From Microthyrium microscopicum (taxonomy: Eukaryota), in NCBI GenBank assembly GCA_010405405.1, contig MU004230.1:3707119-3771118 (forward strand): 64,000 nt of DNA. The letters run 5' to 3'. Of the stretch, positions 1 through 63,229 are shown piece after piece. Positions within the stretch are counted from its first letter, which is position 1. Each line of letters opens with the position of its first letter. Both the position numbers and the translations under genes were made by a program. The notes under the pieces were generated by a model that searched no databases, was not told the DNA's origin, and was given only the letters and a program-made list of their open reading frames with translations.

Positions 1-1320
1 TTATTATTCTATAGTAGACTAAGGCTAACGCTAATAGTACTAAGTATTTTATAAAATAATATAAATCTATAATCTATATAATAGTAAAGACTAAGTAGCT
101 ATTAATAGTTAATTTCTTTTAATATATAAATTATAATAGAGATAAAAGCTAGATAGATAATAGTAAAGAAAGGCTAGTAAATAGAATTATAAAACGTAAC
201 TATACTAAGTGTAAAAGAATAGTATAGAGCAAACTATATAGCCTTTATTATTAAATATATATTAAGCTACTATAGAGACTAGAAAAAGATATTATTAAAT
301 AAGAGAAGAGTTTAAGATGCTAATAGGTATTCTAAACGAGTATTATTATAAAGTAAAGAAGAAAAGGAAGTTAAAGAAAAGAAGTACTATTTTATACCCC
401 TCTAAGGTACTAAGGTATTACTAATAGCTTATAGTTACTTATAAATAATACTAAGTACTCTAGTAATAATATTATTAAGAGCATTCTCCTCTTTTAGAAA
501 CTAAAGCTATTCTAATCTTCTATAAAAAAGTAAATATAAGTCTCTTATACTTCTAATAACGACTATTATTAATAGATAATATAGCTTATATTAAGTTAGT
601 AAGTAATTATAAAGTAAATAAATTAAATAAAGCTACTATATATAGTAAGATAACTCTTAGATAGAATACTATAGATAAGAGTAACGCTTATCGTTTTAAG
701 TTAAAAGATTAAGCCTAGTAAAGTTAAATAATAGAGACTATTTAACCTATATAGCTATTATTAGTATAATTTTAGATACGATTTACTAATAATTAAATAA
801 GACTTAAACCTATATAGTAGCTTAATTCTACTACTAATATATAAACATAATATTTCTTAATATTATTCTACTTAAGTTACTCTCTCTTTTAATTATAACT
901 TATTAGTACTACTATTAAGAATATACCTTATAATAAACTATATAGAATAATTAAAGATACTTAAAGTAATAGATAGAAATACTAACTATAAGTAATACTT
1001 TATATATAAAGGGTTATATAGATAGTATAGTAAGAATAAATAGAATAATATAAAGAAGAAAGAGTAAGCCTATAGTATTAATAAATTACAATAGACTTAA
1101 AACATTAATCTTTTCTTATTACGAAATATATTAGCTAAAATATATATATAGTTATTAAATATAACTACTCTTCTAAAAAAGGGAATCTATATAATTATAT
1201 TTAAAGTTAGTTAAGAAGTAGTATAAAAGAAAATAATGAAGGCCTTTAACTAAGAATATAAATAAGGATAATTATAAGGTTATATATAATAACGTAAAGC
1301 AAAAATCTATAAAAGGCTTT

Positions 1321-1420
1321 AAAAACTATTAAAAGGTGTTAAACGTTATTAGATATTATTAAAAATTGTTAAAAGTTATTAAACGTTATTAAAAGTTATT
1401 AAAAGTTATTAAATATTATT
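1321..1420. repeat. 10-bp tandem minisatellite (consensus aaa(c/a)gttatt), ~10 copies
   Basis: Consecutive units aaaaactatt/aaaaggtgtt/aaacgttatt/agatattatt/aaaaattgtt/aaaagttatt/aaacgttatt/aaaagttatt/aaaagttatt/aaatattatt. Confidence 0.85.
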
Positions 1421-1851
1421 ATATATTTCTAAACGTTAAGATATAGGCTCTTAAATAAAGTAAATAGTAATAAATACTACTAGACGCCTATATAAAGGAA
1501 AGTCTCTTAAAGCTACTATAAGAAATATAAGATTAAGATATAAAAGTATATAATATAGTTAGGATTTAAAAAAGGTAGGTAAACTAATTTAGAGCTATAT
1601 AGGTATCTATAGTAAAATGTTTAAAACGTTTAATATTCTTTGTAGTATATTTGCTAGTATACTAGCTATAATAGGACTTAGCTTTATTAATAATTATAAT
1701 ATAGCCTTATAAATAAGAGATCTAAGTATTTAATTACTTCTAGCTTAACCTTACTAAGAAATAATAATATAGCTACTTACTATAAATACTTAGTTACCTA
1801 TATTTAATAAATTAAGTTTTATACCTTAATATTACTAAACTCCTTTATTAG

Positions 1852-2056
1852 TATTATTTATCTTTCTACTAAATCTTTTATACTACTATTATAACTTAAG
1901 ATAATAAAATTATAAACTAGAGTATTATAAATAAATCTACTCTTAGCTATAATATATTATTTATCTTTCTTTTAAACCTTTCTATACTACTATTAAGACT
2001 TAGAATAGCAAAAGTATAAATTAGAGTATTATAGATAACTCTACTTTTAGCTATAA
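1852..2056. repeat. two-copy ~103-104 bp degenerate direct repeat
   Basis: tattatttatctttct at 1852 and 1955; tactactatt at 1881 and 1985; tagagtattata at 1918 and 2022. Confidence 0.75.
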
Positions 2057-3094
2057 AGATTCTTTATACTATTATTCTCTAAAAGTTCTAGGTTTAATAG
2101 TACTAGTCTACTAAAACTATAATAATAAAAAACGTTATTAGAGGACTAGAAGAGCTTACTATTAAATATAATAGATATATAGAATACGTAAGTAATATAT
2201 TAGTAAAAGTAAAGAAAGCTATAAAAATATAAATATAGAGAATCTTAGACTAAGAGCTAGAAGGAAGTAATATAAAATTTATAATAACAAAGTATATAGA
2301 CTATATCCTTTATAGTAATAATTAGATTATATAATTTAGGCACTATATAATTTAGATTTAAATAGGATTTAATAGAAATATAATTATAACTATATAATAA
2401 GATCTATAATAACTATAATTTAAACTTAACTATTAATATAAGGAGAGAAATTAAACTTCTATTACTAGTCCTAGTAAAGGTAGTAAAGAAGGCTTTTAAT
2501 ACTTAGGCCTATAGCGATTAGAGATAAGGGTTTTAAGAGGCGTAACTTACTAACTATTATTATCCTTATTCTAATCTTTATTACTAAATTATTATTAGTA
2601 AGACTACTAAGCTTTTTTTTTATTAGCCTACTTCTAAGCCTCTTTACTTACTAAATACTTCTTAGTTTCCTTATTTTAAACCTTAATATAGCGTCCTTTA
2701 TTAGAAACGTAATCTACTAATAAGTAGCTATCCTTTTAGGATTTAAAGTAATACTAAGTATAACTATTAGTTATACTCTTAATAACTTTATAACCCTATT
2801 TAGTATAAACCTAATATTTATAATTACTTTCCTTATAATATGTATATTAATTATTACTATAAACCTAATAGCTAAGATTAGTCTCTATAATAGTTATAAT
2901 ACCTTAAAATTTATATTACTTAGTATTATCTTTATATATAGCTAAATCTTTATAATACTACTAGCTAAATTAAGTAGAGTTATACTAAGACAAACTATTT
3001 AGAGTCCCTACCTAAGGAATCCTACTTTAAAAGCTTTATTTAGACTCTTTAAATAATATAGTAATTAAAGTAGAAAGAATACTATCTATAAAAT

Positions 3095-3262
3095 AAGATA
3101 GAGGAAGAAGTAGATATATAAGACTATAATTACTAATAATATAAGTATTATTAATAGAAGGAGTAGAAGTTAAGATATAAAATAGATAAGGAGATAGAAG
3201 TATAAGACTATAATTACTAGTAACTTAGATATTACTAATAAAAAGAGTAGAAGTTAAGATAG
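3095..3262. repeat. two-copy 84-bp degenerate direct repeat
   Basis: agactataattacta...gagtagaagttaagata recurs at 3121 and 3205. Confidence 0.7.
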
Positions 3263-6200
3263 AGGTAATTAGATAAAAAGGGTTAATAAATATTAAGGAA
3301 ACTAGAGATAAAGTATTTATTACTAGTTAATTACTAGGCGCAATAAAGGTAACTAAAGCTTAGAAAGAAGGTAGATAATAAGCTATAAAAGAAGGATAAT
3401 AATTATTATTATTTATATATAGACTAATTAGCTTAACTAGACTTAATATATATTAAACTAATATAGGAGAATTAGACTATAAATTTAGAAATAGCTAAGA
3501 AAGAATTAGTATAAGTATATAACGTAGCTAAGCTAGTAGTTAAAAAATAGATATAGCTCTAACTTATAATTCTTCCTTAAGTTTAGTTATAATATAGTTT
3601 TTAGCTTTAGTCTATAGATATATAATTAGCTATAAAGGAGTAATAATCTAAGTTTTAATATTACTATCTTATTTATTACGCCTATTATTAATAAATAGAC
3701 TATTTATTTCCTAATTATTACTAAATAAGTTAAAATCCTTATTATTACTATCCTTATCTAAGGATCTAAATAAAAAAGATCTTATTAGTAGAGATAAAGA
3801 CGCTCTTAGTATAGTATTAATAGCTAGAATAGATAAAAAACTTTCTACTAATAAGATAATAGTAAGAAATAAGGAAATTAATATAAATATAGACGTAGCC
3901 TATAAAGAAGCTAAAGATTAATAATATAAAGAAGAACCTATAAGCTAAGAAGATAAGAAAGAAGAATAAGTTAGAGCTATAGAAGTAATAATAATATAAA
4001 CTACTAGTCTTTACTACTATAGCTAAGGTATATTTATAGTAATATTAGTATTAATAGCTTACTATATAGTAGTAGCAAATTATATATACTTAGCTTAAGT
4101 ATCTAATAACTAATATATATACTAAGTATTAGTAAATTTATGCTACTTTCTCTATACCTCTTCTATCTCTAACTAATACTATTAAGCTTAGTAGCAATAG
4201 TAAGCATTAATAGCTATATCTTAATAAGTATAAAGTATAAGAATAAGAATAGCCTCTAAACGACCTAATGCTTATTAACTAGTAATGCTTAAATAATCTA
4301 AAAGTATACTAATACTTATTAAACTTAGTAAAAGATAAAGATAGTAATAATACTCTAGTATATTAGAATACTAGTAAGCTTCTTTAATAAGGTATAACTT
4401 ATAATAATTAAAGTTAGTATAATTATACTAATTAACTTTAAAGATAATATAAATAGCCTTATAAACTATAGAAGCTAAATATAGTATAGATATAATATTT
4501 AATACTATAAACTCTAGATTATAAACTAGAGGTCCTCTAAATCTTAAAGTAAATATCTATAGTAAATATATAATACTTAGAAACTTAGGTAGGAAAGTAA
4601 TAAGTCTATACTAAGTAAAACTAAAGATACTATAATCTATTAGAGTAAAGAAAATATAAACTATATATAATTATACTAGTAAAAGAAGCTAATTAGTTAC
4701 TAAATTATAAGTAAGGTACTACTAGGTCTAATTCTCTCTAAGTAATAAAAGTTAAGAAATAAAAATAGACGTTATAGTTATTATAGGCTATAGAAGAAAG
4801 AAATATTAAGGTATAGAGAGATAAGGAACGTAATAAAAGAATATTTTATCTTTATCTAAATCTAAAATAGAAGACTTAGTTTTATAAAATATCTAAAGCT
4901 ATAGTTAACTATTTAGATATAGCTACTTATTACTATTATACTTAGAAAGGTCCTAATATAGAGTAAGAGCTATATCTAAAGTTAGCCTATTTTTAACTAT
5001 ATATTAGATAACCTTATTATTATTTAGTTAACTCTCTTACTTAGATAATATATTATTATTTTTACCTAATTTTATAGATATAGCTATATCTAATAGCTCT
5101 TAGGTAAAAGGTAAAAAACTATTATAATATAAACCTAGCAATCTTAATAGCGAAGTAATAAAAGAAGCTAAAATATTAATATAACCTAGCTTTTTATTTA
5201 AAGAAAATAAAGGATCTAGATTAAGTAGTATAAGTTTAAAAATTAATAAAAGTATCTTAATAGAAATAGTAAAGCTTAGAAGCAACAAAAAAATAAGTTA
5301 TAGGAAAAGTAGTAAAAGAAGTTAGGAAGCAAATAGTATATTTAGTTCTTAACTATATAAATATAGATTAGATAAGTTTAAAATAAAAGGTTAATTATAA
5401 CGCTAATAAAGAATAGTGTAAGAAATATAGCTACTATAAAGGCTAAAATTAGGCCTATAACCTAATAAGATTAACTAAGGTATAATAATATTAGAACTAT
5501 AAATTATTACTTAGATACTTAATAAAAAACCTTAAAAGATAACTTATAAAGAGTTTTAAAGGCAAAAGTAACTAGATTATAGCCTATAATAATAATAAAC
5601 GTTTAAGTAGAGAAACGTATAGATAGTACTCTTTTTAAAATACTTATTAATAAGTAAATAAACTAAGGATATAATAGAGGCTACTTAGAGGCTAAATAAT
5701 AAGACTTAAAGGTATAATAAGTACTAAATAACTTATAAAAATAAGTTAAAGCTAAAAGAGTAATACTTAAAAGAGAGAGAAAAGATATAGAGGGCAAGAG
5801 ATTTTATAGATAGTAGATTATATAGACTAAAGATATTTATATAAATAATACTATCTATTTAATTAATAATAGTTACTATTAACTACTTATAATAGTAACT
5901 CTTAAACGTTCCTACTATTTAAAAGGTTAGTAAACTTTAAAAATAATTTAATAGTAAATTTAGACTAATAAGAAGTTAAGTTTTAAAAGAAAAGGTAATA
6001 AGAGATATAATCTAATAAGAGTTCTAATCTTATTAATAGAATACCTTATAACGTACCTTCTAAGATCTATTAATTAAAATATTTAATAACGTTTAACTAT
6101 TAAATTATTTTAAAAAAGAAAGTACGTAACTAAATATTTAAAGATAAAATTTAATATATAATAAGGATAATAATAATATATAAATAATTAAGAATAAGAT

Positions 6201-8379
6201 AAAGTAATAGAGAGTAGTACTATCTAAGATAACTAAGGTAAAAGAAGGATATAGAGAATATTATAGAATTATAGTTTAAAATCTATTAAGATAAATATAC
6301 TATTAGTACTATATAAATAGCGTTAAAAGCATATATAAGGAAATATAGTTAATATTAATAACCTTTAATACTAATAAATAGGATTTATATAACTCTATAG
6401 ATAATAATATAATAATTAGTAATAGCTATATTATTCTAAGTATAAATATATAAAAAGTTCTTAAAATCTTAACTATTCTTTATAAAACCTAGTATATACC
6501 TAATACTATAAGATAAATAACCTAATAATAATTAAGGCTATTTAACAATATATAAAATATAGAAATATTATTAAATATATTAATAAGGAAATAAATTCTC
6601 TAGCGCGTGCCTAAACTAGTATACCTTTTAGCTACTTTTAGTTATCTCTTAATATACTAGTTTATTAATAAAAGTATCTAAATTAGAGGAATAGGATAAG
6701 TATATAGAAAGTAACCTATTTCTTAATATAGTAGTCTCTCCTAAACTATAAGGAAGTATTAGGAATAGATTAGTTACTTAGGTTTATTATAGAATAGCTA
6801 AGCTATATTATATCCTTTTATATAGTATAATATCTAGACTATTTATAAGAGGTAGGAATAAGAAAAGGTAGTAATTAAGATTATTATATAGAGACTAACG
6901 TTTAGTTTCTAATTCTTATTATTATTTTCTACTATAACTATTAGTTACTAAAGGGTAAGATAGTAAGCTTAATTAACTATTTTTAGTATTATAGAGTAAA
7001 AGGCTACTTAGATAGTTTAGTAGCTAATACTTTATAAGCTTATTTAGTAATAGTATATATAATAAGGATAAGTCTAGAAATATATTAAGTAAAAAAGAAT
7101 ATAAAGTACTATTATTATACTAAGAAGTAGTTAGTATTATAAGTAAAGGTTAAAAAAGATTATTATTAACTAAAAGTTTAAAAGCTAATCTAGGTTTATA
7201 AAGATAACCTCTTTCTTATTTCTTCTTTAGATTAAGAGATACCTTAGTTCTAGTTTAAGATAACGAACTAAGTATAGATAATACTACTAAGGGCTAAGAT
7301 AATAATAATAAAGGAAATACTAATTAAGAGGCTAAGATAGAGATAGCTAGATATATAATAGATAATAATTACTTAAACCTTAAAGTAATCTAACTTAGTA
7401 AATAGTCTACTAGTAAAGAACTAATAAGCTTAACTTTTCTAAAAGAATAGTAATAAGTATTAGAACTTAGAACTATAAGAGATAAATATAATAGTATTAT
7501 AGGACTAGCCTACCTAAAAGGTTTATTATACTTAAATGCTACTATATAGTAAGTTTAATAATTAAAACTAATAAGAAAGGTTAATAACTAGCTATAAGTA
7601 GCTATATTTATAATTCTTTACTTCTATAAAAGAAAATATTTAAGATATATCTAATTCTATATAATATTTAAGTCTATAGAATTATTTATAAGAGGTAGAA
7701 AGTTAGTAGAATCTTAAAAAGTACTTAAAGTAACTAACTTAAGTTAGCTTATATACTAAAACTCTCTAAACGAGAGCTATTAATAAGTAATTAGATACTT
7801 CTTATCTAACTATGTAGTAGCCTACTATTTTAAGCTATTAAAGGCATATTACTTTTACGTTTTTATATAAGAAACTATTAACTTTTTCTTTATAATAGGC
7901 TAAGGTAGTAACGTAATAAATTTATCTAGCTAGTATATATTATAATATTAATTATAATTAATAAGAGTACCTTAATAATATTTAACGTCTCTTAAGTAGT
8001 CTAGGATAACTTAATAATAATAGTAAAGCTAACTAAGGTTAGAATCTAATAATAATATACTATTAACTAACTTTAACTAGATAGAATTAACTATAGCCCT
8101 ATACCTAATTTCTATATATATCTAATCTAGTAGTCTATTACTTTTTAGGTTATAACTAGTAGAGGCTATAGTAGCTAGACTACTAAGTAGATTAATAAAC
8201 GCCTAAGCTTTCTAAGTAGCGACTAAAATACTTAGTTAAGTAGTAAAATTAATATTTTATATTATATAGAGTAACTTAAGAGCTAATAGTAAATAGCCCT
8301 TAGTATTAACCTTACTAATACTAGCCTAAAGAGTAGTTACTACTATATATATATTATCTACTTTCTTATAAAGAAACTT

Positions 8380-10310
8380 TAGTACTAGATACTACTTTTA
8401 AGTATTAAATAATTAGTATAGTAGAAAAATAATAACTAATAAATAAAGAGAAATATAATTAAATAGCCTAACTCTAAAGAAAGTTCTATTATCTAGATTA
8501 AGTAAGATAAATAGTAGTAAGTTTAAACCTATTTTTAGTAAAAAAGGAAGAATATAACTAGCTTTAGGATAACTAACCTAACTAATTTTCTAAACTAAAT
8601 TAGCTAATGCTTTACTTTATAGAAGACCTTATATTATAACGCAATATATATTTAGAATATTAATACCTATACTAAGGGTAGTTATAGTAACTATAATATA
8701 GTAAAATAAATTAAACTACTTAAGCTAAATATACTATAAATCTTAATTAAAATTCTAAGTTAGTCTAGTATACTATTAGATAATAGTATAAATACTAGCT
8801 AAGAAAAGCTAATTACTCTAAGTAAAGTTAGAATATAACTTTACTAAAGCTTATTATAAGTAATTAAGAATAAATATTATATCTAATAGCTTATCTAAGA
8901 AAATTATAGTTAATAATATAAACTTAAGTATTATAAACGAATCTCTATTAGTAGGATTCTAAATAGCCTAACTAAGGGCTATGTCTAATCTTAACTAATT
9001 GCTAAGCTTTCCTTTTAGAATATATAAGAATTAAAGACCTAAATCTAGCTTATTAATAGTAGTATAGATAAACCTAGTAGTATAAGTAATATCTTAGTAT
9101 TCCTTATATAGCTAAAATCCTTCTTTATTAAGTAAAAACTTCTTAGCTTCTACTATTAAAGTCTTTAAGTAATTAAACTAGATAATAAAATAAGGAATAA
9201 TATCTTAAAGTGTATAAAGCTAAGAATATTCCTTCTAAAAGGATTTTCCTTAGTTCTTAATAAAATGTCCCTTGTTAATAGTAACTAGACTAAGTCTATT
9301 TTAGAATTAAGGATCTTAAAGTAGTTTTTATATATACTTACTAATTAATTATTTAGGAGAAAGTAGATAATATATAATAGTACTATTAAGTAACCTATAA
9401 TAGACTTAAGTATATTTGTTAGGTATTAACCCTAAATAAATAACGGCTAGGTTTATATTAAAGAGCTATATAATATCTTTATACTACTCTAAATTTAATA
9501 AAGTAAGGAGAATAGCCTAGAGAGTAACCTTACTAGTAAGAATACTAAAAGCTTAGAAAATAATGCTTTTACTATATCTAATCTTAGTAATAAGCATAAT
9601 ATCTTATTATTTAAAAATTATATAATATAGAGATTCTACCTAACTTAGCTTAGTTTCTAATCTCTTACCTTCTTATATATATAGTAATCTTTTAAATAAA
9701 GCTTTTATGAGATCTTTATAATATTATTAGCCTAGAGAAGTAATATAAATACTAGCTTTATTATCCTTTTAGGTAAGTATATTAGTAAAGATAGCTAAAA
9801 GTATAGAAACTTTAATTATAATATTAAAATCTTATAAGTACTCTATCTACTTATTTAGTATAATAGTATACTATAAACTAAGTAGATATATAATAGGATT
9901 AATACTAATAGCATTACTACTACTAATAAGATTATTATTAGTTTTATTATTATAAGTACTAGTACTAATACTACTAGCTATATTACTAACTATATTCCTA
10001 CTAATATAACTACTAGTATTACTATCTCTATTACTATTGCTATTACTATAGATAGTACTACTATAATTACTAGCTATATTATTACCCTAACTACTAGTAG
10101 CAAATTTATTAGATTTAGCGGCTATAGATAGTATAAGGCTATAAAGAGCAGAATAAGTACGTCTATTAATAAAGCTAAGGAAAGATATATCCTACTTAGG
10201 ACTATTAGATAAATCTATCTAAGTTACCTTTATATTATAATAACGTTAATCCTTAGTCTAGCCTTTAGACTAACCTACACCCTTCTTACGCCCTACTTTA
10301 TATTTATGCT
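8380..10310 (-). pseudogene. RIP-inactivated RecQ-family (SF2, DExH) helicase gene relic
   Basis: One minus-strand frame over 9660-8560, read with only A>G/T>C reversions, gives motifs in the expected order: Q-motif (KPGQVESL), Walker A LIAKTGYGKSIIFQ (~9590), Ia TGKVTLQAIPLT, Ib SPEQ, II LVAIDEGH...WGKSFRKEY (~9270), III SGTL, IV TIIF, V RIVVATTALGMGIDIPD (~8690), VI QKIGRAGR (~8585). Outer limits approximate. Confidence 0.85.
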
Positions 10311-10500
10311 TAGTACTAAGTATAATAATAACGCGTAAGTCTCTAATTAACTATATCTATATTAGTAATGCTAATATATAGTATTTATATATAGAGTAGT
10401 AAATAAAGGTTAATATCTAATACTTTTATCTAGTATAGACGTTATAAAACGTTTAGAATATATAAAATATCTAATAAATAACTAGCTAAAGTTTTAATAC

Positions 10501-10735
10501 TTTAGAAACGTTTAACACGTTATAGAAACATTTAATACGTTATAGAAACGTTTAATACATTATAATAAACGTTTAATAAAATATAACTAACGTTTAGTAA
10601 GATATAATAAACGTTTAATATATTATAAGAAATATTTAATACGTCTTTAGATATATTTAATACGTCTTTAAATATATTTAATACATCTTTAAATACGTTT
10701 AATATATCTTTAAATATATTTAATATATCTTTAGT
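10501..10735. repeat. 20-21 bp tandem minisatellite with ACGTT cores
   Basis: tagaaacgtttaa(c/t)acgtta x3, then 21-bp atttaatacgtctttaaatat-like units x5. Confidence 0.85.
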
Positions 10736-11312
10736 AATATCTAGCGCGTTATTTAGAATAGCTTATATATAGTTAAAATAGTTTAATATATTATATAATA
10801 TAATTAACGCGTATTTATATAATATAGACCTTAAGATTAAGATAAATACGTAAAGGGAATAATAAGAGTATAAAACTATAACTAACGCGAACTTACTAGC
10901 AGTATTACTACTAAAAGTAATAATAGAAAAGCTAATAGTATTACTAGCTAATAATATAGAATAAGGCGTTATAAATATATTTTATAAATATACTAAGTAT
11001 AGGAGAAGAGATAAAAAGATAGTATAAGTAGTAATAGTAGATAGTAGTTATATATATATATATAAAAGATTATATAATTATTAACTTTTGCTAAGCTAAA
11101 CCCTCTAGAGCAAGATAAAATAAAAAGATTTCTAGAGAATATAGTTAGTATTAAATCTTAAAATAAACCTAATTTTTATATATATAATTACTTACCTAGT
11201 AGCCTTTTATAAGAATATTTAATAATTTATACGTAGTAGTAGTATAGTTAAAAGATAAATAGAAATCTAAAAATCTATTAAGGCTAATATAGTATAAATG
11301 GCGAAAGTGTCT

Positions 11313-11387
11313 CTTAGGCTCTAATTCAGGGTTAGGGAGCGTAGCGACCGTTAATAATTAGACGCTAAACCTGAATCAGAGTCTAAG
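11313..11387. repeat. imperfect 23-bp inverted repeat (hairpin) at the RIP boundary
   Basis: cttaggctctaattcagggttag (11313-11335) and ctaaacctgaatcagagtctaag (11365-11387) match at 20/23 as reverse complements. Confidence 0.75.
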
Positions 11388-12922
11388 CACGCTGAGGTAA
11401 GGCGAAATGGAGCCGCTCTCCTAACTCCATTTTATATGCAGCATCTTAATCATAACCACGGCGCCTCAATATGGCTGGTTAAGCATTGCGAAAAGCTTGG
11501 TGAGCGTCGTTAGCATTGCCAAGTCTTTTTTGACATACCGTTCCTATGGCCAGGAGGACGGTAAAGAGATGATACTTGATGCCTGTCTCTGTCGGGAATC
11601 CTCCCGTCTTCTCCCAGGACCCATGTGTCGGTCGAGAAGACTGCTAGCAGACGTACGTTCATGCTTGTTTAACAATACGAGTTTGTCAAGGCAGGCCTGG
11701 CCTGCCGTCTCCTTTTGAGGCGGCAGAAAGGTGGTTGTGGAAGCGTCGTGCATTTGGAGTCCAAACAATCGAAGTCATTTCCATCCACCCCTGCCAGAAC
11801 GCTCTGAAACTAGTCGGGAATGATCGGCTTCTACTCTACGTTGTTGATCACCCGAGTATATGTATAGACAAGTATATCTTTGTACACACGACGCGATTAA
11901 AATCTATATTGCGTAGATCTTGCGATCCTGGTAAATGCAAGAAGATTTGGATCCTTTGCCAGATGTAGGAAACACTTGAGTTATATTGCTGCTTGCTATA
12001 ATTTCATGAACCAGTGAAGCATATCAGCAAGGTAATGAGTGATATCCTCAAAGATAATCAAAATCGAAAATGTCGTAAAAATAGACTGTCCCTTTTTGAC
12101 CGATGGAAACCAATCTTGACTTTGTCGCCCGAGGGGGCGGAGCGCTTCCGTCTGGGGTGTAGATCTATACAGATGTCTAAACAATGAATTACTTCAGACC
12201 CTTGTTTAAATTTCTGCTTACTTGTCCAATCTAAATGTGAGGTAACATCACAAAAGGGACCACATATCATAGGTATCAGAATTTTCTTGCGGATTGTCGC
12301 ATGTGGAATCTTCCTTATTATCGATATAGACATATCGTTGTGGGATCAAATACCGGTGTTATCAGCAACAGGATAGCATGAAATTTCCGCGGTGGTTGAT
12401 ATTTTATAGAACTCAAAAGATGGAGTAAAGAAAAAACACAGGATGAATCTGGGCCGTCATGTACGGGGATGAACAACAGTTCGAGGATGACTGGAAGAGT
12501 CAAGGTTTGACAGTTAACACAATAAAATATGGTATTCAAAAACCCCATGTCTTCTTCATGCAGGGGTAATGTGGAATACGAAGGAAGAAATAGTATAAGG
12601 TACCACAGCGTTTAACTATATTTAGAGCGCTATTACATACCGCAGATCTGTTATGGAACTAAAGTTATTGATTGATCGTAGCAGGCTGTTCCATGTCTTC
12701 TGTCTTCATACACTTCGGTATTCAAGTACCTAGAACTTAGGTAAATGGTTGTTCCTTAGATTAAACACCGAACCAAGTTTTCTGCTCACAAGATATATAT
12801 TTGACGGAAACCGGAATTAAACTGAACACTTATCAGCAAACGGACTTTTCACGGGCTGATGAAGTTCATGATCTATCTGACTCGAAAATCATATCTGAAT
12901 AGACAATCTGGACTGAGCGCAT

Positions 12923-54118: not shown

Positions 54119-55716
54119 GGAGGGCTAATGATCGATGGTCGATGAGGAGGAGGTAGGTAAGTTTCTTGCTGCGGTGGGAAGGCGCGGTGAGACGTGAGAT
54201 CTGGCAGGCGGTTTGGAGATCGGTTGCCTGTTATCGAGGGTGGATTAGATTGAGGCAGGAATGTCTCAGATGGCGTGGTCAGGCTGTGGTTGATGTGAGA
54301 TGGTGGTTAGGATCGTTGGTCACTACTTCCGGTCAACGACGAAGCCTCCTCCTTTACGATTACGATGACAGGTCTTTGGTGGAGTCCAACTGTGGAGTAG
54401 CGTCTAGAGCGCTCAAAAATATTGAAATCTAGCCGCAGCAACCACTACAGCGCCGACAGGGTCTTGGTAGAGTATAGTTTTCTCTTATCAGAGTAAGAGC
54501 GAGGGTTACTGGTTCAACGGCCGTGGGCTCTACACACCTGCAGAGGCCGGTTGGGGCTCCCAATCGTGCCAATCATCAAGCTACCAGGCCCATGTGGGCT
54601 AAATAGCTATTGATTACTGTGTGGCGCGAGCTTAGGATCAGGCCTTTGACTATTTCCACGGTTGCCAGGTCCAGCTAGGTGTGGTGTTGCAAGTACAACA
54701 TGCGGCAGTAGTTTGCAGCCGCTACGCGCAAGTCGTGCAGAGAGCCCCTGGGGGCCTTGGAGTCTTTATGGCCTGGACTTGGTGATATTCTCGTAATATC
54801 TGAGCAAGATGCCCCGGATGAGAGGCATTGATGGTTGAAAAGAAAAGGTCCAAAAGCACTAGAGTGATGTTCAGGGTCCCAAATGATCGTCACAACGGTC
54901 CTAGTCACGATCCTCCCGAAGATACCCTATCCATAACGGCAACCAGGAGATATCTACACTCGTATCCATTGATTGTTCGAATATCAGACTATCAATCACT
55001 GTACCATACCCCGCAGCATATTTCTCCACTGCTCCCGACTTCCGGCTACCATTTCCAATTTGAGGCTCAACTGTCAAGCATTTCGGAAGCCAAAGGGACT
55101 CTTCGTTCACTCCTTGGAGGATATTGTGCCTGCTTGCTAATTTTGGCGTAATAGTTCTCACTCGGAAGCCAAGGATCTTCCAAGAGGGCACATTCAGTGA
55201 AAGATCGCACGACATCAAGTCATATCTATCAAATTTTTGTAAGGTTATTGAAGTCCTCGCATCAGTAAGAAAAGCCCATCATCATAGTTATCCTTGCAAT
55301 CCATCTCTAACCCACTAAACCATCTGTGAGTCTTGCTATTTCCACTTTTCATTAGCGCTTCGCAAGGCTGACCCGCAAGGCTGAGCATAAGGCTGAATAT
55401 TGCTTTGGAATACACCTTGTTGGTCTGCCTCGGGCTCATCAGTATGCAAACATGACCTACTGCGGATTAGCTGCCGCATATGCAGTATGGTTAAACGACG
55501 CAGAGCTGAAGGTTTGCGGTCCCCAGCCCCCATAATCGTCATGCTGTTGGGCTGGAATTTTAGGCTGCGAGAAACGACCCAGTTTTCACTATAAAGAGAG
55601 ACAGAGCGAGAGCTCACTTCTCTTTTCCTTCGCAGTCTTTCAGTCTGTGATCCTAAACGTATCTCATATGTGCGCTCAACTAAGCACTGTCTGCACTTTC
55701 TTTGCTGAGAACGCTC

Positions 55717-57867
55717 ATGAATCACGAACAGGTGTATCCCGAATTGACGGGAAAACATTCCACCAGAATCCTCAAACTTTACCCCAAATACCGTAATCGT
55801 AACGGTCGCTTGGCTGGAGAACTCATCGTTATCGATCTCGACCATCCACTAGTATTTGATGCTGTGTCTTATGTCTGGGGCAAAAGAATTGACCAAGGCA
55901 AAATCTTCTGCAAGAGAACGAGCGGGGACGGATATGGGGAGATTCGTCTCACTGCCAACGGAGAGGATGCCCTCAAACGCTTTCAATATCGCACCAAAAG
56001 CCGTCTCCTTTGGATAGACGCCGTTACCATAAATCAAAAGAGTGACAAGGAACGCAATCATCAAGTTGCAATCATGTCTCAGGTGTATTCCGTAGCGAGA
56101 AGTGTTCTTGTTTGGCTCCCCAGCGATGATGAATGGGCAAGCGACAGATTTACCTCTCACAACGTTCAAAGACTCCTAGATGACATTGCAAAGGGTTTTT
56201 CTTGGGAGACCACGGGCAGCTCCCACCGGGTAGCTGCGGAGCAAGAGATGGCTGTCTTGAGTCAAGCTCCCTGGTGCTCTCGAGTTTGGACAGTTCCGGA
56301 GTTTGCGTTTGCTCAAGACTGTCTGCTTTATTCTGGTGCAGCGAAGCCTTTGGACGGGCTTTCTGTGTATAGACTCTCATACGAATGGGAAGCTAGCCCT
56401 TTTCACTACAGGACCACTCGATCGGCCGGACGCTCTTGGGTGAAGCACGGTAATTCTTTAGCAATCAAGGAATCCTACAGCGGGTCAAGATGGCAGAACC
56501 TAGAGAACATGATTCTGACAAGTCGAGAGCTTGAGGCGTCGTTACCAGTGGACAAGGTATTTGCTATGTATAGCCTTCTTAAAGCTTCGCCGTCTAGTTC
56601 GGACACGAGTTCGGACCCCCATATTGCGCAGGCCCCTGACTACTCGAAGTCAGAGCATGAGGTATTTCGTCAGATGACAGGAAGCTTCATAAAAACTGTG
56701 AAAAATCTGCTCATCTTGCGGCATGTACCAGGCATTAAACAATCATCAGGGGGCGCATCTTGGGCAATTGACTTTACGAATCCAGGAAGACGCATCGGCA
56801 TCAAGATCGCATCTAAAGCCGCTTTATTGCCACCAAGTACATTTGATATATCAAAAGACTGGAAATTCTTGACAATTTATGGCCAATTTGTTGATACTGT
56901 TCGTTCCGTTGCCGTTGAATCTTTCCGCCCACCAAGCTCAGCAAGTTACACAAAAGAACAGGCAAAAGATGCGCTAAAAGTTGTGCTTAAGTGGTTTCAT
57001 CTAGCTATGCAAACCGATGCATCAATCCACTGTAAGACTCGGCGCTTCTTCTCACTTCCGCTTCTTGATTCAGTCTCATACGAAGAGGAAAATCAGAGCA
57101 CCTACGAAGCGCTTCAGGAGAACGAGACCACCTACGGAACGATTCAGTTGGCCCGGTTAATTCTCGATCTGCTTCCAGCACGGTCAAAAGCCCCGGGAAG
57201 GCGACCGGAAGTCGAAGCCGCAGGTTCCAAAGGACTCAAAAGAGAACTCAGTATCATGTGCTCTGGGTTCAAAGGTCTACCGTTACGTGACGTCGCAGAG
57301 GAGGCAGCTATTATAACTTCTTTTGTACAAGGACGACCTTTTCTTGGTCTTTTGGGCCATCGAAATGTCTTTGAGCCTTGTGGTCTTGTAAACTATGAGG
57401 TCAATCGACGGTTTCTGGACCAACGGGTACGGGACTGCGAATGGTCAGACCGGAACGATGAATCCTACCGGCTTTGTCTTGAAAGATTCTCTGATCGAGA
57501 GTTCTTCACTACTGAAGGTGGCTATATAGGTCTTACCAATGGCCATGTCCAAGAGGGTGATCACGTTGTCCTGGTGCCCGCGCTACACAGTCCAGTCTTA
57601 CTCAGGAAGCACAAAATCAGCAGTGAATACAGCTTTGTGGGCGTGGCGACAGTGCCAGATATGATGCCTCCCCAGAAACCATCTCAGATTATGACATCTA
57701 CTAGATTACCACTTACACGGCCTGGAAATACTGCAGAGAGCACATGGCGGCCAGATGTCACAGAAGGACAGAAAATCAAGGGTATCGAAACCTCTAATTC
57801 AGATCCTTCAATCTGGAATTGGGACCAGTTAAGGCATTTATGCCTGGAAAAATTCATACTTTCTTAA
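55717..57867 (+). CDS. HET-domain (HET-6-like) heterokaryon incompatibility protein
   Basis: TRILKL, FDAVSYVWG, LWIDAVTINQ..ERNHQVAIMSQVYSVARSVLVWL, PWCSRVWTVPE, DKVFAMYSL, PDYSKS, FFTTEGGYIGL..GDHV. Confidence 0.88.
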   Translation: MNHEQVYPELTGKHSTRILKLYPKYRNRNGRLAGELIVIDLDHPLVFDAVSYVWGKRIDQGKIFCKRTSGDGYGEIRLTANGEDALKRFQYRTKSRLLWIDAVTINQKSDKERNHQVAIMSQVYSVARSVLVWLPSDDEWASDRFTSHNVQRLLDDIAKGFSWETTGSSHRVAAEQEMAVLSQAPWCSRVWTVPEFAFAQDCLLYSGAAKPLDGLSVYRLSYEWEASPFHYRTTRSAGRSWVKHGNSLAIKESYSGSRWQNLENMILTSRELEASLPVDKVFAMYSLLKASPSSSDTSSDPHIAQAPDYSKSEHEVFRQMTGSFIKTVKNLLILRHVPGIKQSSGGASWAIDFTNPGRRIGIKIASKAALLPPSTFDISKDWKFLTIYGQFVDTVRSVAVESFRPPSSASYTKEQAKDALKVVLKWFHLAMQTDASIHCKTRRFFSLPLLDSVSYEEENQSTYEALQENETTYGTIQLARLILDLLPARSKAPGRRPEVEAAGSKGLKRELSIMCSGFKGLPLRDVAEEAAIITSFVQGRPFLGLLGHRNVFEPCGLVNYEVNRRFLDQRVRDCEWSDRNDESYRLCLERFSDREFFTTEGGYIGLTNGHVQEGDHVVLVPALHSPVLLRKHKISSEYSFVGVATVPDMMPPQKPSQIMTSTRLPLTRPGNTAESTWRPDVTEGQKIKGIETSNSDPSIWNWDQLRHLCLEKFILS

Positions 57868-60065: not shown

Positions 60066-62339
60066 CTACTTCCTCCCAAAAGAGCCAAACAAATCCCCCC
60101 TCCGCACCCCAAACCTCTCCTCCAAAAACTTCAACACCTGATCATCCGGCTCCTCCGCCGTACCCGGCAACCCCATAACCTTCAACCCTTGCAAACTCTT
60201 CGCCCGTGATAACGCTACGTATGCCTGTCCAGCCTCAAAGCTCTTGCTCAAATTCACCACCACTCGACTCAACGTCATACCTTGGCTCTTATGTATGCTC
60301 ATCGCCCACGCTGGGAGCAGCGGGATCTGCGTACGCCAGATGAGGGATGGTGGAGTGCGTGAATCGCCGAGGAGCTCGGTGATGGAGCATTCGGCGGTTA
60401 TGACGCGCTCGGTGCCGTTTTGGAAGCGGACGACGGGCCATTTGCGTTTGGCGGGGAGGCGGGTGTGGGCGAATTCACGGGTGGAGGATGCTTGGAGGTC
60501 GGCGTGGGTGCCGAATTTTTCGGTGGTGAAGCGGAGGCGTTCGGGGGTGGGTTTGGTGGGTTTGATTGTTGGTGGTGGTGGTGGTGGTGGTTTGGGCTGG
60601 GCAAGTGCTAGGGGTGGGTCGAAGAAGAATGATGGATCTGTGTCGTGAGAGACGTGAGAGTCTGGTGCATTGATGGCGGAGGCGGTGAGGGCGGCGGCGG
60701 CTGCTGCTGGATTCAGGCCAGCTGCTGGATTGAACGATGCTGTTGGTTGAAGTTGATGTGGTGGAGGTGGTGCTGGCAAAGGCTCAAAAGCGTCTTCCCA
60801 ACGCATGATTTTGCCTTGGCTGCCGTTGATGAGACCTTCAGCGACACTGATGTTGACAAGCAGAATGACGAGAGCGCCTGTCTTTAATGAGAGTTCGGCC
60901 TCGAAACGGTGGTCTTTGAAGCATGTGAGAAAGCCGCTTTGATCTCGATATGTCTTGGATTGCAGTTCTCTCACATGTTCGTCCTACTCGGCCTTAGCTA
61001 GATGCTCATAGGGGACTCTAGAGGGATGAGGAAGTGCATATGCTTTCTTAGCCGCTGTGTTGAAGCAGAGCCAAGTCCAACATCATATCTCACCACCCTC
61101 GAAAGAACATACCTGAATCCTAAGTCCATCAATCGCCTTGAAGTCCTGCCTCAAACTCCCCAACCGATTAAACTCAAACTCATTCCGCTCCTTAACCTCC
61201 TTCCTTGTAGCAAAAAGCTGCACCGCCCCAAAAGTCTCACACTCATGATCCAACAACAACGCCCTCTCCTTATTCGTAAACGGCACGCCCATCCTACACT
61301 TCTCCAGCAACCCAATAAAGGTCGGATCACTCTGTCTATGAATCGTCTTCAAATTTATACACTTGAAATTCGCCTCCTTCCAACAATCCGCCTGAAACGC
61401 CCACTTATCCTCATCGTAAAACTCGCCATGCTCTTTGCACTCATACACTCTTCCAGGCACTTTCTGGATCGTCGCCTTGCCACAGTCTTTACAATGCTGG
61501 AATGGCTTCACTGGCGGCAACTGGAAGAAATCGCCTAGAAACACACATTGTACGCCACCGAATGGAGTATCGGCCGCATCGCGATATGCATAGCCACGAC
61601 CTGCTTTCATCATCTCACTGACTCTTTCTAGTAGATGATTTTCTACCATACTGATCTCGTCAATGACTAATACATCCGTCTCCCTAAATCTCTTGCTAAT
61701 AACCTTGCCATGCGCGCGCACTCTCAGCTCTTGCAGCGGCAACTTGAGCGAATCTGGCGTAATCCCTGCGTATGCGTGCAACGTTTGTCCGCCAATGTCA
61801 ACAGCTGCGCGGCCCGTGGGCGCAACGATGCGAACATTGAGTTGGCGATCGCGTAGCTCGGCGACGGCAGCTTTCAGAACGGTAGACTTGCCGCAGCCTG
61901 CAGAGCCAGTGAAGAAGACGTTGTCACCGCGGAGGATCGTGTCGACGAGGTCGCGCTGTTCAGCGCAGAGCGTTGGAGGAGGATCGGGGATGGGCGCGCG
62001 GGGCTGTTGGTTGGCGGAGATGGATGTTGGGATCCCGGTGGGGAGGGGCGGGTCGTCTGGTATGTGGATGACATCTTGAGTGTCGGCGATGGTGGAGAGG
62101 GAGATGTATTCAGCGGGCGCAGCGGAGGCGAGCGATGTTATCGAGGTGCGTGAGGCTGGATTGCTGTGGATTTGTGGTTTGGGTTGCGGAGATTGGTCGA
62201 TGAGGTTCTTGGTCTGATTTTCTTGGTCGGGAGTGGGCTCTTGCTTGGTGATGGCGGTGGTGTTGATGCGTTTTGGAGGAGGTGGAGGAGAGCTTGTGAG
62301 GTCGATGACTTCGATGTCATCTCTGGCGCGTTTCGACAT
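60066..62339 (-). CDS. PIF1: Pif1-family SF1B 5'-3' DNA helicase
   Basis: FFTGSAGCGKS, APTGRAA, IDEISMV, PFGGVQ..GDFFQLPPV, IHRQSD, RTQIPLLPAWAMSIHKSQGMTL, GQAYVALSRA; intron ~60984-61112. Symbol is family-level. Confidence 0.92.
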
Positions 62340-63229
62340 ATTTTCTGTGCTCTTTGCGAGTAGAGATCGAGTCTTTTATTGTCCTGTGGAAGGGACGTGT
62401 GGGTGCTATTTTTGGAGTTGATAAAGCTATGTGTGGTGGTGACAATTCTCCGAGTAAAGGAGAACGCGTCGTTAAGACGCGTAGCGCCACCAAACGTTGT
62501 GGGGTAAGAATTTCAGCCTTATAGCAACGCCATTCATACATTATTTTCCGCACCTCATCCAAGACGTGAATATTACATGAAATAGAGCGAAAATAGATCA
62601 ATTCGTTGCAGAGTTCAAGCTAAAAGACATCATCATCAACAAGCGTACAGTAACGGGCAATTTTCACATCACTAAACTCATAGACGATAACTTTGTCAGA
62701 CTTGATGAATTGATTCAAACTACACGTACAAGAACAAGTCTATAACGACCTGTTTCTGCCCATCCAGCGCCAACCCACTGTATACGTAAGACACGAGCTG
62801 CACCAGCAAGAAAATCATGTCCGACATGCACATGAAAAGCAATAGTAGCAAAATACACATTTCCCAATACGCGCTTCATCCCCGCCATACCCCGAGCTAA
62901 GCAGTAGTGCCTAGCGATAGTCGTCTAGGATGAAACGCAGGTATCCGAACAAATGAAAAGAAGACAACAGGCAAGTATAAACAGCCCCCAAGGCGTAGAG
63001 CGCCTCAAAGTTTTCGTCACCGTGCTGAAGCCAATGGGATGTTTCGCAATGACAGAAAGGATGAGAAAATATTTGTGCTGTTTTCGGAAGGTTTTGCGCA
63101 AGACATCCAAAGCTATCGTTGCAAGTCATGGGTCTCATGAGTCAAATCAAAAGGGTAGAAAAGAGTGGTCAGCAGTCAGGGGGGCTTGCTGCAGCACTCT
63201 GTTGGTACAATTGAATCGCAGGCGTTGCT

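Follow-up and report, generated by a model that had tools for sequence, protein, structure and literature searches.

The window analysed here, a stretch of 64,000 nucleotides from Microthyrium microscopicum, begins with DNA of about 21% GC and a composite RIP index of 1.3-2.0 (bases 1-11000, against 39-56% GC in the remainder), and this DNA contains, at 7720..10323 on the minus strand, a RecQ-like SF2 helicase gene killed by RIP. The gene is delimited by an ATG at about 10323, which is kept in one sister copy and opens the same MPSTK start as in an intact relative, by the helicase core, and by C-terminal homology at 8184-7719, detected in five of the 13 relatives scored (59-76, against noise of at most 57); its 3′ end may extend further left. 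The core itself, delimited by RIP-aware alignment at 8563..9723 (minus strand), has its Walker A motif at 9585, DExH at 9276, motif V at 8691 and motif VI at 8592. The initial annotation had placed a fossil helicase at 8380..10310, with four codon strings as examples: these are present exactly as quoted, in order, in one minus-strand frame, with their starts at 9585, 9276, 8691 and 8592, and the helicase is where it was said to be, in a gene that is longer, from about 10323 to at least about 7720. Motif V, translated there as VATTALGMGID, is likewise present, although it cannot end in GID because two copies keep GTT, and across the copies it reads GV[D/N]. When only G>A and C>T changes are allowed, the four motifs occur in order and with helicase spacing just once in the six frames of a 35-kb sister copy, a single occurrence that argues against chance. 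The helicase frame carries 77 stops in 867 codons, every one of them TAA or TAG; 12-nt repeats form a low-complexity linker in its N-terminal part (9891..10085), and 21-nt tandem repeats make up a subterminal array upstream of the gene (10493..10740).

The helicase belongs to a RIP-mutated DNA transposon of 35,150 bp and is found 1 kb from one of its ends; the helicase-side 11.4 kb of this element fill window positions 1..11400 (minus strand), colinear with three other copies at 88-94% identity. A TIR starting TTACCTCAG occupies 11377..11400 (minus strand), 18 of its 24 positions being identical to the far end, which starts TTATCTCAG, and is followed at 11401..11408 by an 8-bp TSD, ATTTCGCC on the minus strand, repeated exactly past the far end. 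The whole element lies at G000:C1:3683369-3718518, so that 23.7 kb of it precede the window start, including the second TIR and the DUF6589 gene; about 9.8 kb of this copy, all outside the window, lack readable sequence. Within the window, a second coding-like frame at 2610..5282 (minus strand), found independently in four copies and perhaps representing several genes or exons, joins a Pro-rich part to a Cys-rich domain, and internal tandem arrays at 1319..2067 comprise 10-nt units (1319-1421) and 104-nt units (1852-2067), similar to arrays that fill the middle of an intact element described below. Beyond the element, and 1.5 kb from it, lies a likely secondary-metabolite cluster (window 12923-38639) with genes for a 2OG dioxygenase, two multicopper oxidases, a Zn2Cys6 factor, an FAD monooxygenase, a nitroreductase, a transporter, and a polyketide synthase with thioesterase; a HET-domain gene (55684-57867) and an intact host PIF1-type helicase gene (60066-62375) are unrelated to the element.

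Direct searches with the mutated helicase were blank: Pfam gave no family at E<=10 for the window frame with stops read as X, a PDB profile search with the RIPed frame gave no match, and a word-index search with the four-copy alignment found no homologue, so that the identity of the gene rests on its relatives. A profile built from the four unrepaired copies had 178 matches at E<=1e-3 among 1.84 billion proteins (best 3.3e-29), and DEAD and Helicase_C domains were present in 28 of the 28 matches scanned, which were top-ranked, longer ones among the best 150 of the 178. With the best match, the intact relative P0003, as query, the unrepaired window stretch is found at E 3.4e-28, compared with 2.4e-8 for host Sgs1; a profile built from 16 of the scanned proteins has WRN (E 4e-29) and bacterial RecQ as its best PDB matches. 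RIP-aware alignment of P0003 with the helicase core gives a score of 379, where shuffled sequences reach at most 47; G>A or C>T changes suffice to account for 208 of the 378 codons aligned (null 18%), and at 44 of the 52 residues invariant in the family a single ancestral codon is consistent with every one of the four copies. Element helicases score 335-379 in such alignments, compared with 61 for host Sgs1 and 49 for host Hrq1, both of which are intact elsewhere in the genome; when the alignment is limited to host proteins, Sgs1 remains marginal (61, shuffle maximum 54). A quick tree places the deRIP helicase row with the element helicases and apart from Sgs1, this being a tree of 30 of 43 rows, Hrq1 among those dropped, in which the deRIP row is a long and compositionally odd branch. 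An Sgs1 orthologue is rejected on these scores and this tree, together with the four copies here and the intact Sgs1 elsewhere, and the reading of the stretch as a RecQ-like SF2 helicase gene degraded by RIP, distinct from the single-copy Sgs1, as originally proposed, is supported by sequence comparison. The check suggested for that proposal, a deRIP consensus, served less well: built from four copies, it reaches a GC content of only 28% and retains 78 stops in the helicase frame, which implies that RIP is near saturation and that the consensus is a weak test alone, and it is the profiles of relatives that give the helicase its identity.

The prediction that the helicase was multicopy is borne out by three further genomic copies at 90-92% identity. 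The four dispersed copies can be aligned colinearly along some 35 kb, break off sharply at shared ends where unrelated, GC-rich and gene-rich flanks begin, and measure 35,150 (the window copy), 35,243, 44,716 and 46,873 bp; across the four empty sites no long host ORF was found (<=105 codons). All four are flanked by 8-bp TSDs, perfect in three cases and differing by one C/T change in the fourth, and their ends carry short imperfect TIRs with the terminal motif TTAYCTCA. Of the two settings offered for a multicopy gene, mobile or subtelomeric, the TIRs and TSDs bear out the first, and the second fails on distance, the nearest contig end being 0.56-1.37 Mb away from the copies. The same observations weigh on the reading of this DNA as a family of telomere-linked helicases of TLH type, or as a segmental duplication of a host RecQ gene, RIPed as a repeat: the protein family is RecQ-like, and RIP-degraded subtelomeric RecQ families are known in Dothideomycetes, according to the accessible part of PMC4522978, yet the copies are bounded by TIRs and TSDs far from contig ends and tied to a transposase-like gene, and host Sgs1 and Hrq1 score far below P0003, the deRIP row grouping with element helicases. 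TSDs and positions refute this reading, and we consider it extremely improbable.

The length of the element could be explained otherwise, as an ordinary 8-kb transposon inflated by later, independent nested insertions, the long form itself being immobile. Such insertions do occur: each of the two longer copies bears one independent 7.65-kb LTR-element insertion, at different sites and in opposite orientations, and the relatives measure only 6-13 kb. The inserted retroelements, at G000:C5:1050685-1058338 and C1:582522-590171, have 223-bp LTRs and are themselves RIPed, and one copy holds in addition a 749-bp insertion (G000:C5:1064144-1064892) with an apparent 9-bp duplication, possibly a Mutator-type MITE. 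Once the LTR insertions are removed, however, all four copies have one middle in common, shared across each 2-kb bin at 81-93% and no less conserved than the terminal genes; each copy has its own TSD, and homologues of three genes of the middle recur, in unchanged order, in an intact sister element. Differences between copies are mostly transitions (ts/tv 6.5-23), with transversions in only 201 of 23,634 well-aligned columns. A middle as conserved as the ends, and differences that are nearly all transitions, point to an enlarged form that transposed and was then RIPed, and, with the helicase and DUF6589 genes at opposite ends of colinear copies, to a 29-kb middle that travelled with the element. 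On this comparison, the 35-kb element is shown to have moved as a single unit to four genomic places before RIP. For the 35-kb core these observations refute the inflation of an immobile form by nesting, which we consider very unlikely; nesting older than the four copies is possible, and the enlarged form would then have been mobile anyway.

The gene at the far end, convergent with the helicase, encodes a DUF6589 protein. Profiles of intact relatives give, in each copy, a single helicase match (E 1e-35 to 2e-39) and, at the far end, a match for DUF6589 (E 2e-28 to 5e-54); Pfam itself finds DUF6589 in two copies, below cut-off, and across 24 RIPed frames it reports only DUF6589 (two), retroelement domains (two) and one chance match. 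In intact C-terminal transposase ORFs, DUF6589 is the only Pfam family in eight of eight (E<=0.01), and the absence of KDZ and hAT domains from all eight sets aside a Zisupton/Dileera or hAT element. The predicted structure of a relative's DUF6589 protein has a mean pLDDT of 67, and Foldseek with this model returned no match at E<=0.001. In a wide fold search, DDE transposases or integrases fill all of the top 19 rows, each at Z<8, the tool's threshold being 8, with Hermes (hAT) first (Z 6.7, rmsd 10.0, 243 aligned). The family alignment shows a conserved D, D and E; the putative catalytic D, D and a conserved H are RIP-consistent in four of four copies and the E in the three of three copies that cover it. 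Together with the modelled structure, these residues are suggestive of a DDE-like fold.

Between the terminal pair of genes lies the Cys-rich, zinc-finger-like domain at 2691..3119 (minus strand), RIP-killed; in the intact element, as in relatives of 8-15 kb, its homologue is the third gene. It sits at the end of the coding-like frame seen in all four copies and scores 134 and 168 against shuffle maxima of 58 and 90, with 112-143 for each raw copy. PDB profile searches with two RIPed middle frames gave no match, and since the helicase control was equally blank these searches say nothing about the middle. Gene identity could be given to three genes only of the RIPed middle, most of which has no identified gene, and no cargo of benefit to the host was found.

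A search of the genome with P0003 found at least 19 RIPed helicase loci and one intact gene, and the loci among them that were delimited form two more enlarged RIPed families, one of about 30 kb and one of 20-28 kb (20-31 kb overall; G000:C14:32298-62922, C2:1591772-1621356, C9:381805-409910 and C2:3257397-3277474), both ending in the motif of the 35-kb element and flanked by 8-bp TSDs. When the middles of the three families are compared with one another by Blast, only helicase and transposase prove to be shared, homology between the middles being visible only with intact proteins as queries. These come from an intact sister element of 30,168 bp at G000:C6:1228613-1258780 (hereafter the C6 element), which has a perfect 8-bp TSD, lacks a RIP signature, and has at one end a helicase gene, intact with a 1092-codon frame, and at the other a DUF6589 gene, likewise intact. 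Where three RIPed copies depart from it, 94-97% of the differences are G>A or C>T changes on the side of the copies, and its identity to the dead sisters is down to 72-80%. Long tandem arrays and orphan Cys-rich ORFs occupy its middle, and two of these ORFs have weak, below cut-off matches to DUF3716, one with atlas support of 0.92. Three middle ORFs have homologues in the 35-kb family in the same order and on the same strand (74, 79 and 106 against shuffle maxima of 65, 57 and 55), and the two of these scored per copy are seen in three of the four copies. A 200-bp repeat of one terminus is also present in the C6 element. Contigs of sequencing run X5 contain five joints with intron-type ends over its helicase end, two of them on the helicase strand, all five absent from three DNA runs; X5 is guessed to be RNA, no run being on record as such, and the joints indicate that the element is apparently transcribed, in the sense of spliced transcripts and not of activity. 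Runs X6 and X7, whose labels name a different organism, contain fragments at low depth that match the intact element at 99% identity; the simplest reading is contamination or a mixed sample.

At the other extreme of size, four non-autonomous elements of 0.82-0.84 kb (G000:C3:903610-904431, C5:397526-398350, C5:2293519-2294346 and C7:1318379-1319214) share both ends with the 35-kb element and have their own 8-bp TSDs, sequence features consistent with movement in trans. In metagenomes, 18 of 24 loci of at least 5 kb from the helicase family also contain a DUF6589 gene (10 of the 18 come from one sample), the two genes being nearly always convergent, and 12 of 22 loci examined have a third, Cys-rich gene between helicase and transposase. 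In one locus (L150) the two genes share a strand, with DUF6589 upstream of the helicase, and another (L131) has PNP-domain and ankyrin genes after the helicase and no DUF6589 ORF within 8.4 kb. Nine delimited metagenome copies measure 8.5-8.7 kb, end in the 8-mer of the window element and have TSDs of 8 bp, whereas the elements of the present genome span 20-35 kb; a metagenome scan with an intact DUF6589 protein yielded 46 candidates, none confirmed. TIR identity is 16-18 of 24 in the window family, 11-16 in the sister families and 19-21 in the metagenome relatives, and an 8-bp TSD flanks 22 of 22 delimited elements (16 perfect, six with one mismatch), the best agreement at 9 or 10 bp being five letters. 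A size of 35 kb and several genes might suggest a Starship, a tyrosine-recombinase element with the helicase as cargo. The Starship captain is a DUF3435 tyrosine recombinase and the first gene of its element; here the terminal genes are helicase and DUF6589, the scanned ORFs of the intact sister element gave no match to DUF3435, and the variable 8-bp TSDs with TIRs, like the recurrence of the same ends on 8.6-kb and 0.82-kb elements, also count against a Starship, which we consider extremely improbable.

We conclude, with a probability of roughly 0.87, that the stretch preserves the dead helicase gene of a DNA transposon of the helicase and DUF6589 type, a 35-kb giant of the cut-and-paste kind that would work much as AcademH does. 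The DUF6589 protein would be a DDE transposase with the TTAYCTCA ends as its binding sites; by analogy with DDE enzymology, it would excise the element at its TIRs and insert it with an 8-bp stagger, and gap repair or replication may have raised the copy number; the same enzyme could have mobilised the four 0.82-kb elements in trans. The RecQ-like helicase and the small Cys-rich protein may be transposition accessories, the least certain part of the scheme, the helicase most likely unwinding DNA at the ends or the target or acting in donor-site repair. Growth from about 8 kb would have come about by the gain of orphan Cys-rich (DUF3716-like) genes and tandem arrays between the convergent terminal genes.

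The window copy is dead, and it is an unusually large variant of a little-studied kind; what is new is the movement of the long form as a unit and the intact 30-kb member. Fungal TIR elements of the DDE type, it appears, can reach 30-35 kb and still transpose as a unit, while En/Spm elements of 16-20 kb already count as significantly enlarged in the accessible part of a review (PMC6431247). A fungal survey, as far as its accessible text describes, paired inverted repeats only within 20 kb (PMC5751038), a limit at which elements of 30-35 kb would be missed by that step. No description of giant helicase and DUF6589 elements was found in the titles and abstract openings searched, a coverage that excludes Repbase and most subscription papers. 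DUF6589 gains a likely function, database 'RecQ helicases' of this clade are to be read, as a warning, as transposon genes, and the intact, apparently transcribed C6 element offers a test bed for why AcademH-like elements carry a helicase.

With host Sgs1 and Hrq1 and with telomere-linked helicases the element helicase shares a RecQ-like SF2 core; it differs from them by its separate clade, its place inside a transposon and its position internal on contigs. Kolobok elements target TTAA, whereas the TSDs here are variable 8-mers and the helicase is convergent with a transposase at the opposite end. These traits distinguish the present element from KolobokH, likewise a fungal DDE transposon with a RecQ helicase in the accessible part of its description (PMC9587614). 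Zisupton/Dileera (KDZ) and hAT elements resemble it in their 8-bp TSDs and TIRs (PMC12730594, accessible part), and Hermes is the top fold match; they differ in that the ORFs here have DUF6589 only, no KDZ or hAT Pfam domain, and the element brings a RecQ-like helicase with it. REP9 of Zymoseptoria tritici is a similar fungal TIR transposon with accessory DUF3716 genes, yet it is 7.9 kb long and has an integrase-like IS3EU transposase and a 6-bp TSD, and the accessible text of PMC8232023 does not mention a helicase.

AcademH, which the initial annotation had named among its comparisons, proves the closest known group, of which the element is at most a putative member. As described in the accessible parts of PMC10045372 and PMC10799480, AcademH elements have a DDE-type transposase, to which the putative DDE enzyme DUF6589 would correspond, beside a separate DEAD/Helicase_C helicase, TIRs, long TSDs and a low copy number in ascomycetes, as here; compared by description, a conserved third, Cys-rich gene is particular to the present elements, and so is their TSD of 8 bp in 22 of 22 cases, none at 9 or 10 bp, against 9 or 10 bp in AcademH, a length that PMC10045372, in its accessible part, ties to the helicase as opposed to the nuclease of AcademX. 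This difference, together with the lack of any DUF6589-Academ link in the literature searched, could mean that the elements are not Academ and form a separate DDE lineage defined by DUF6589, TTA..TAA ends and 8-bp TSDs, a matter of classification only. We find that doubtful: TSD length varies within superfamilies (hAT5, hAT6, hAT7), and the published Academ profile, compared by eye in three of about twenty parts (positions 16-40 and 195-245, from the accessible supplement of PMC5751038), reads w-l-v-p-f-l-g-f-f-H-i at positions 214-224, where the family has W-L-L-G-V-P-A-W-F-H-I, with agreement in spacing and in the invariant H. It is possible, if on balance unlikely, that helicase and DUF6589 elements with TTAYCTCA ends and 8-bp TSDs are a lineage of their own apart from AcademH, giant here (three families, 20-35 kb) and still cut-and-paste, with the C6 member as a live example, and would constitute a second, DDE-based class of giant gene-carrying elements beside Starships in ascomycetes. 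The comparison with AcademH, drawn by analogy, favours an element that would work in the same way.
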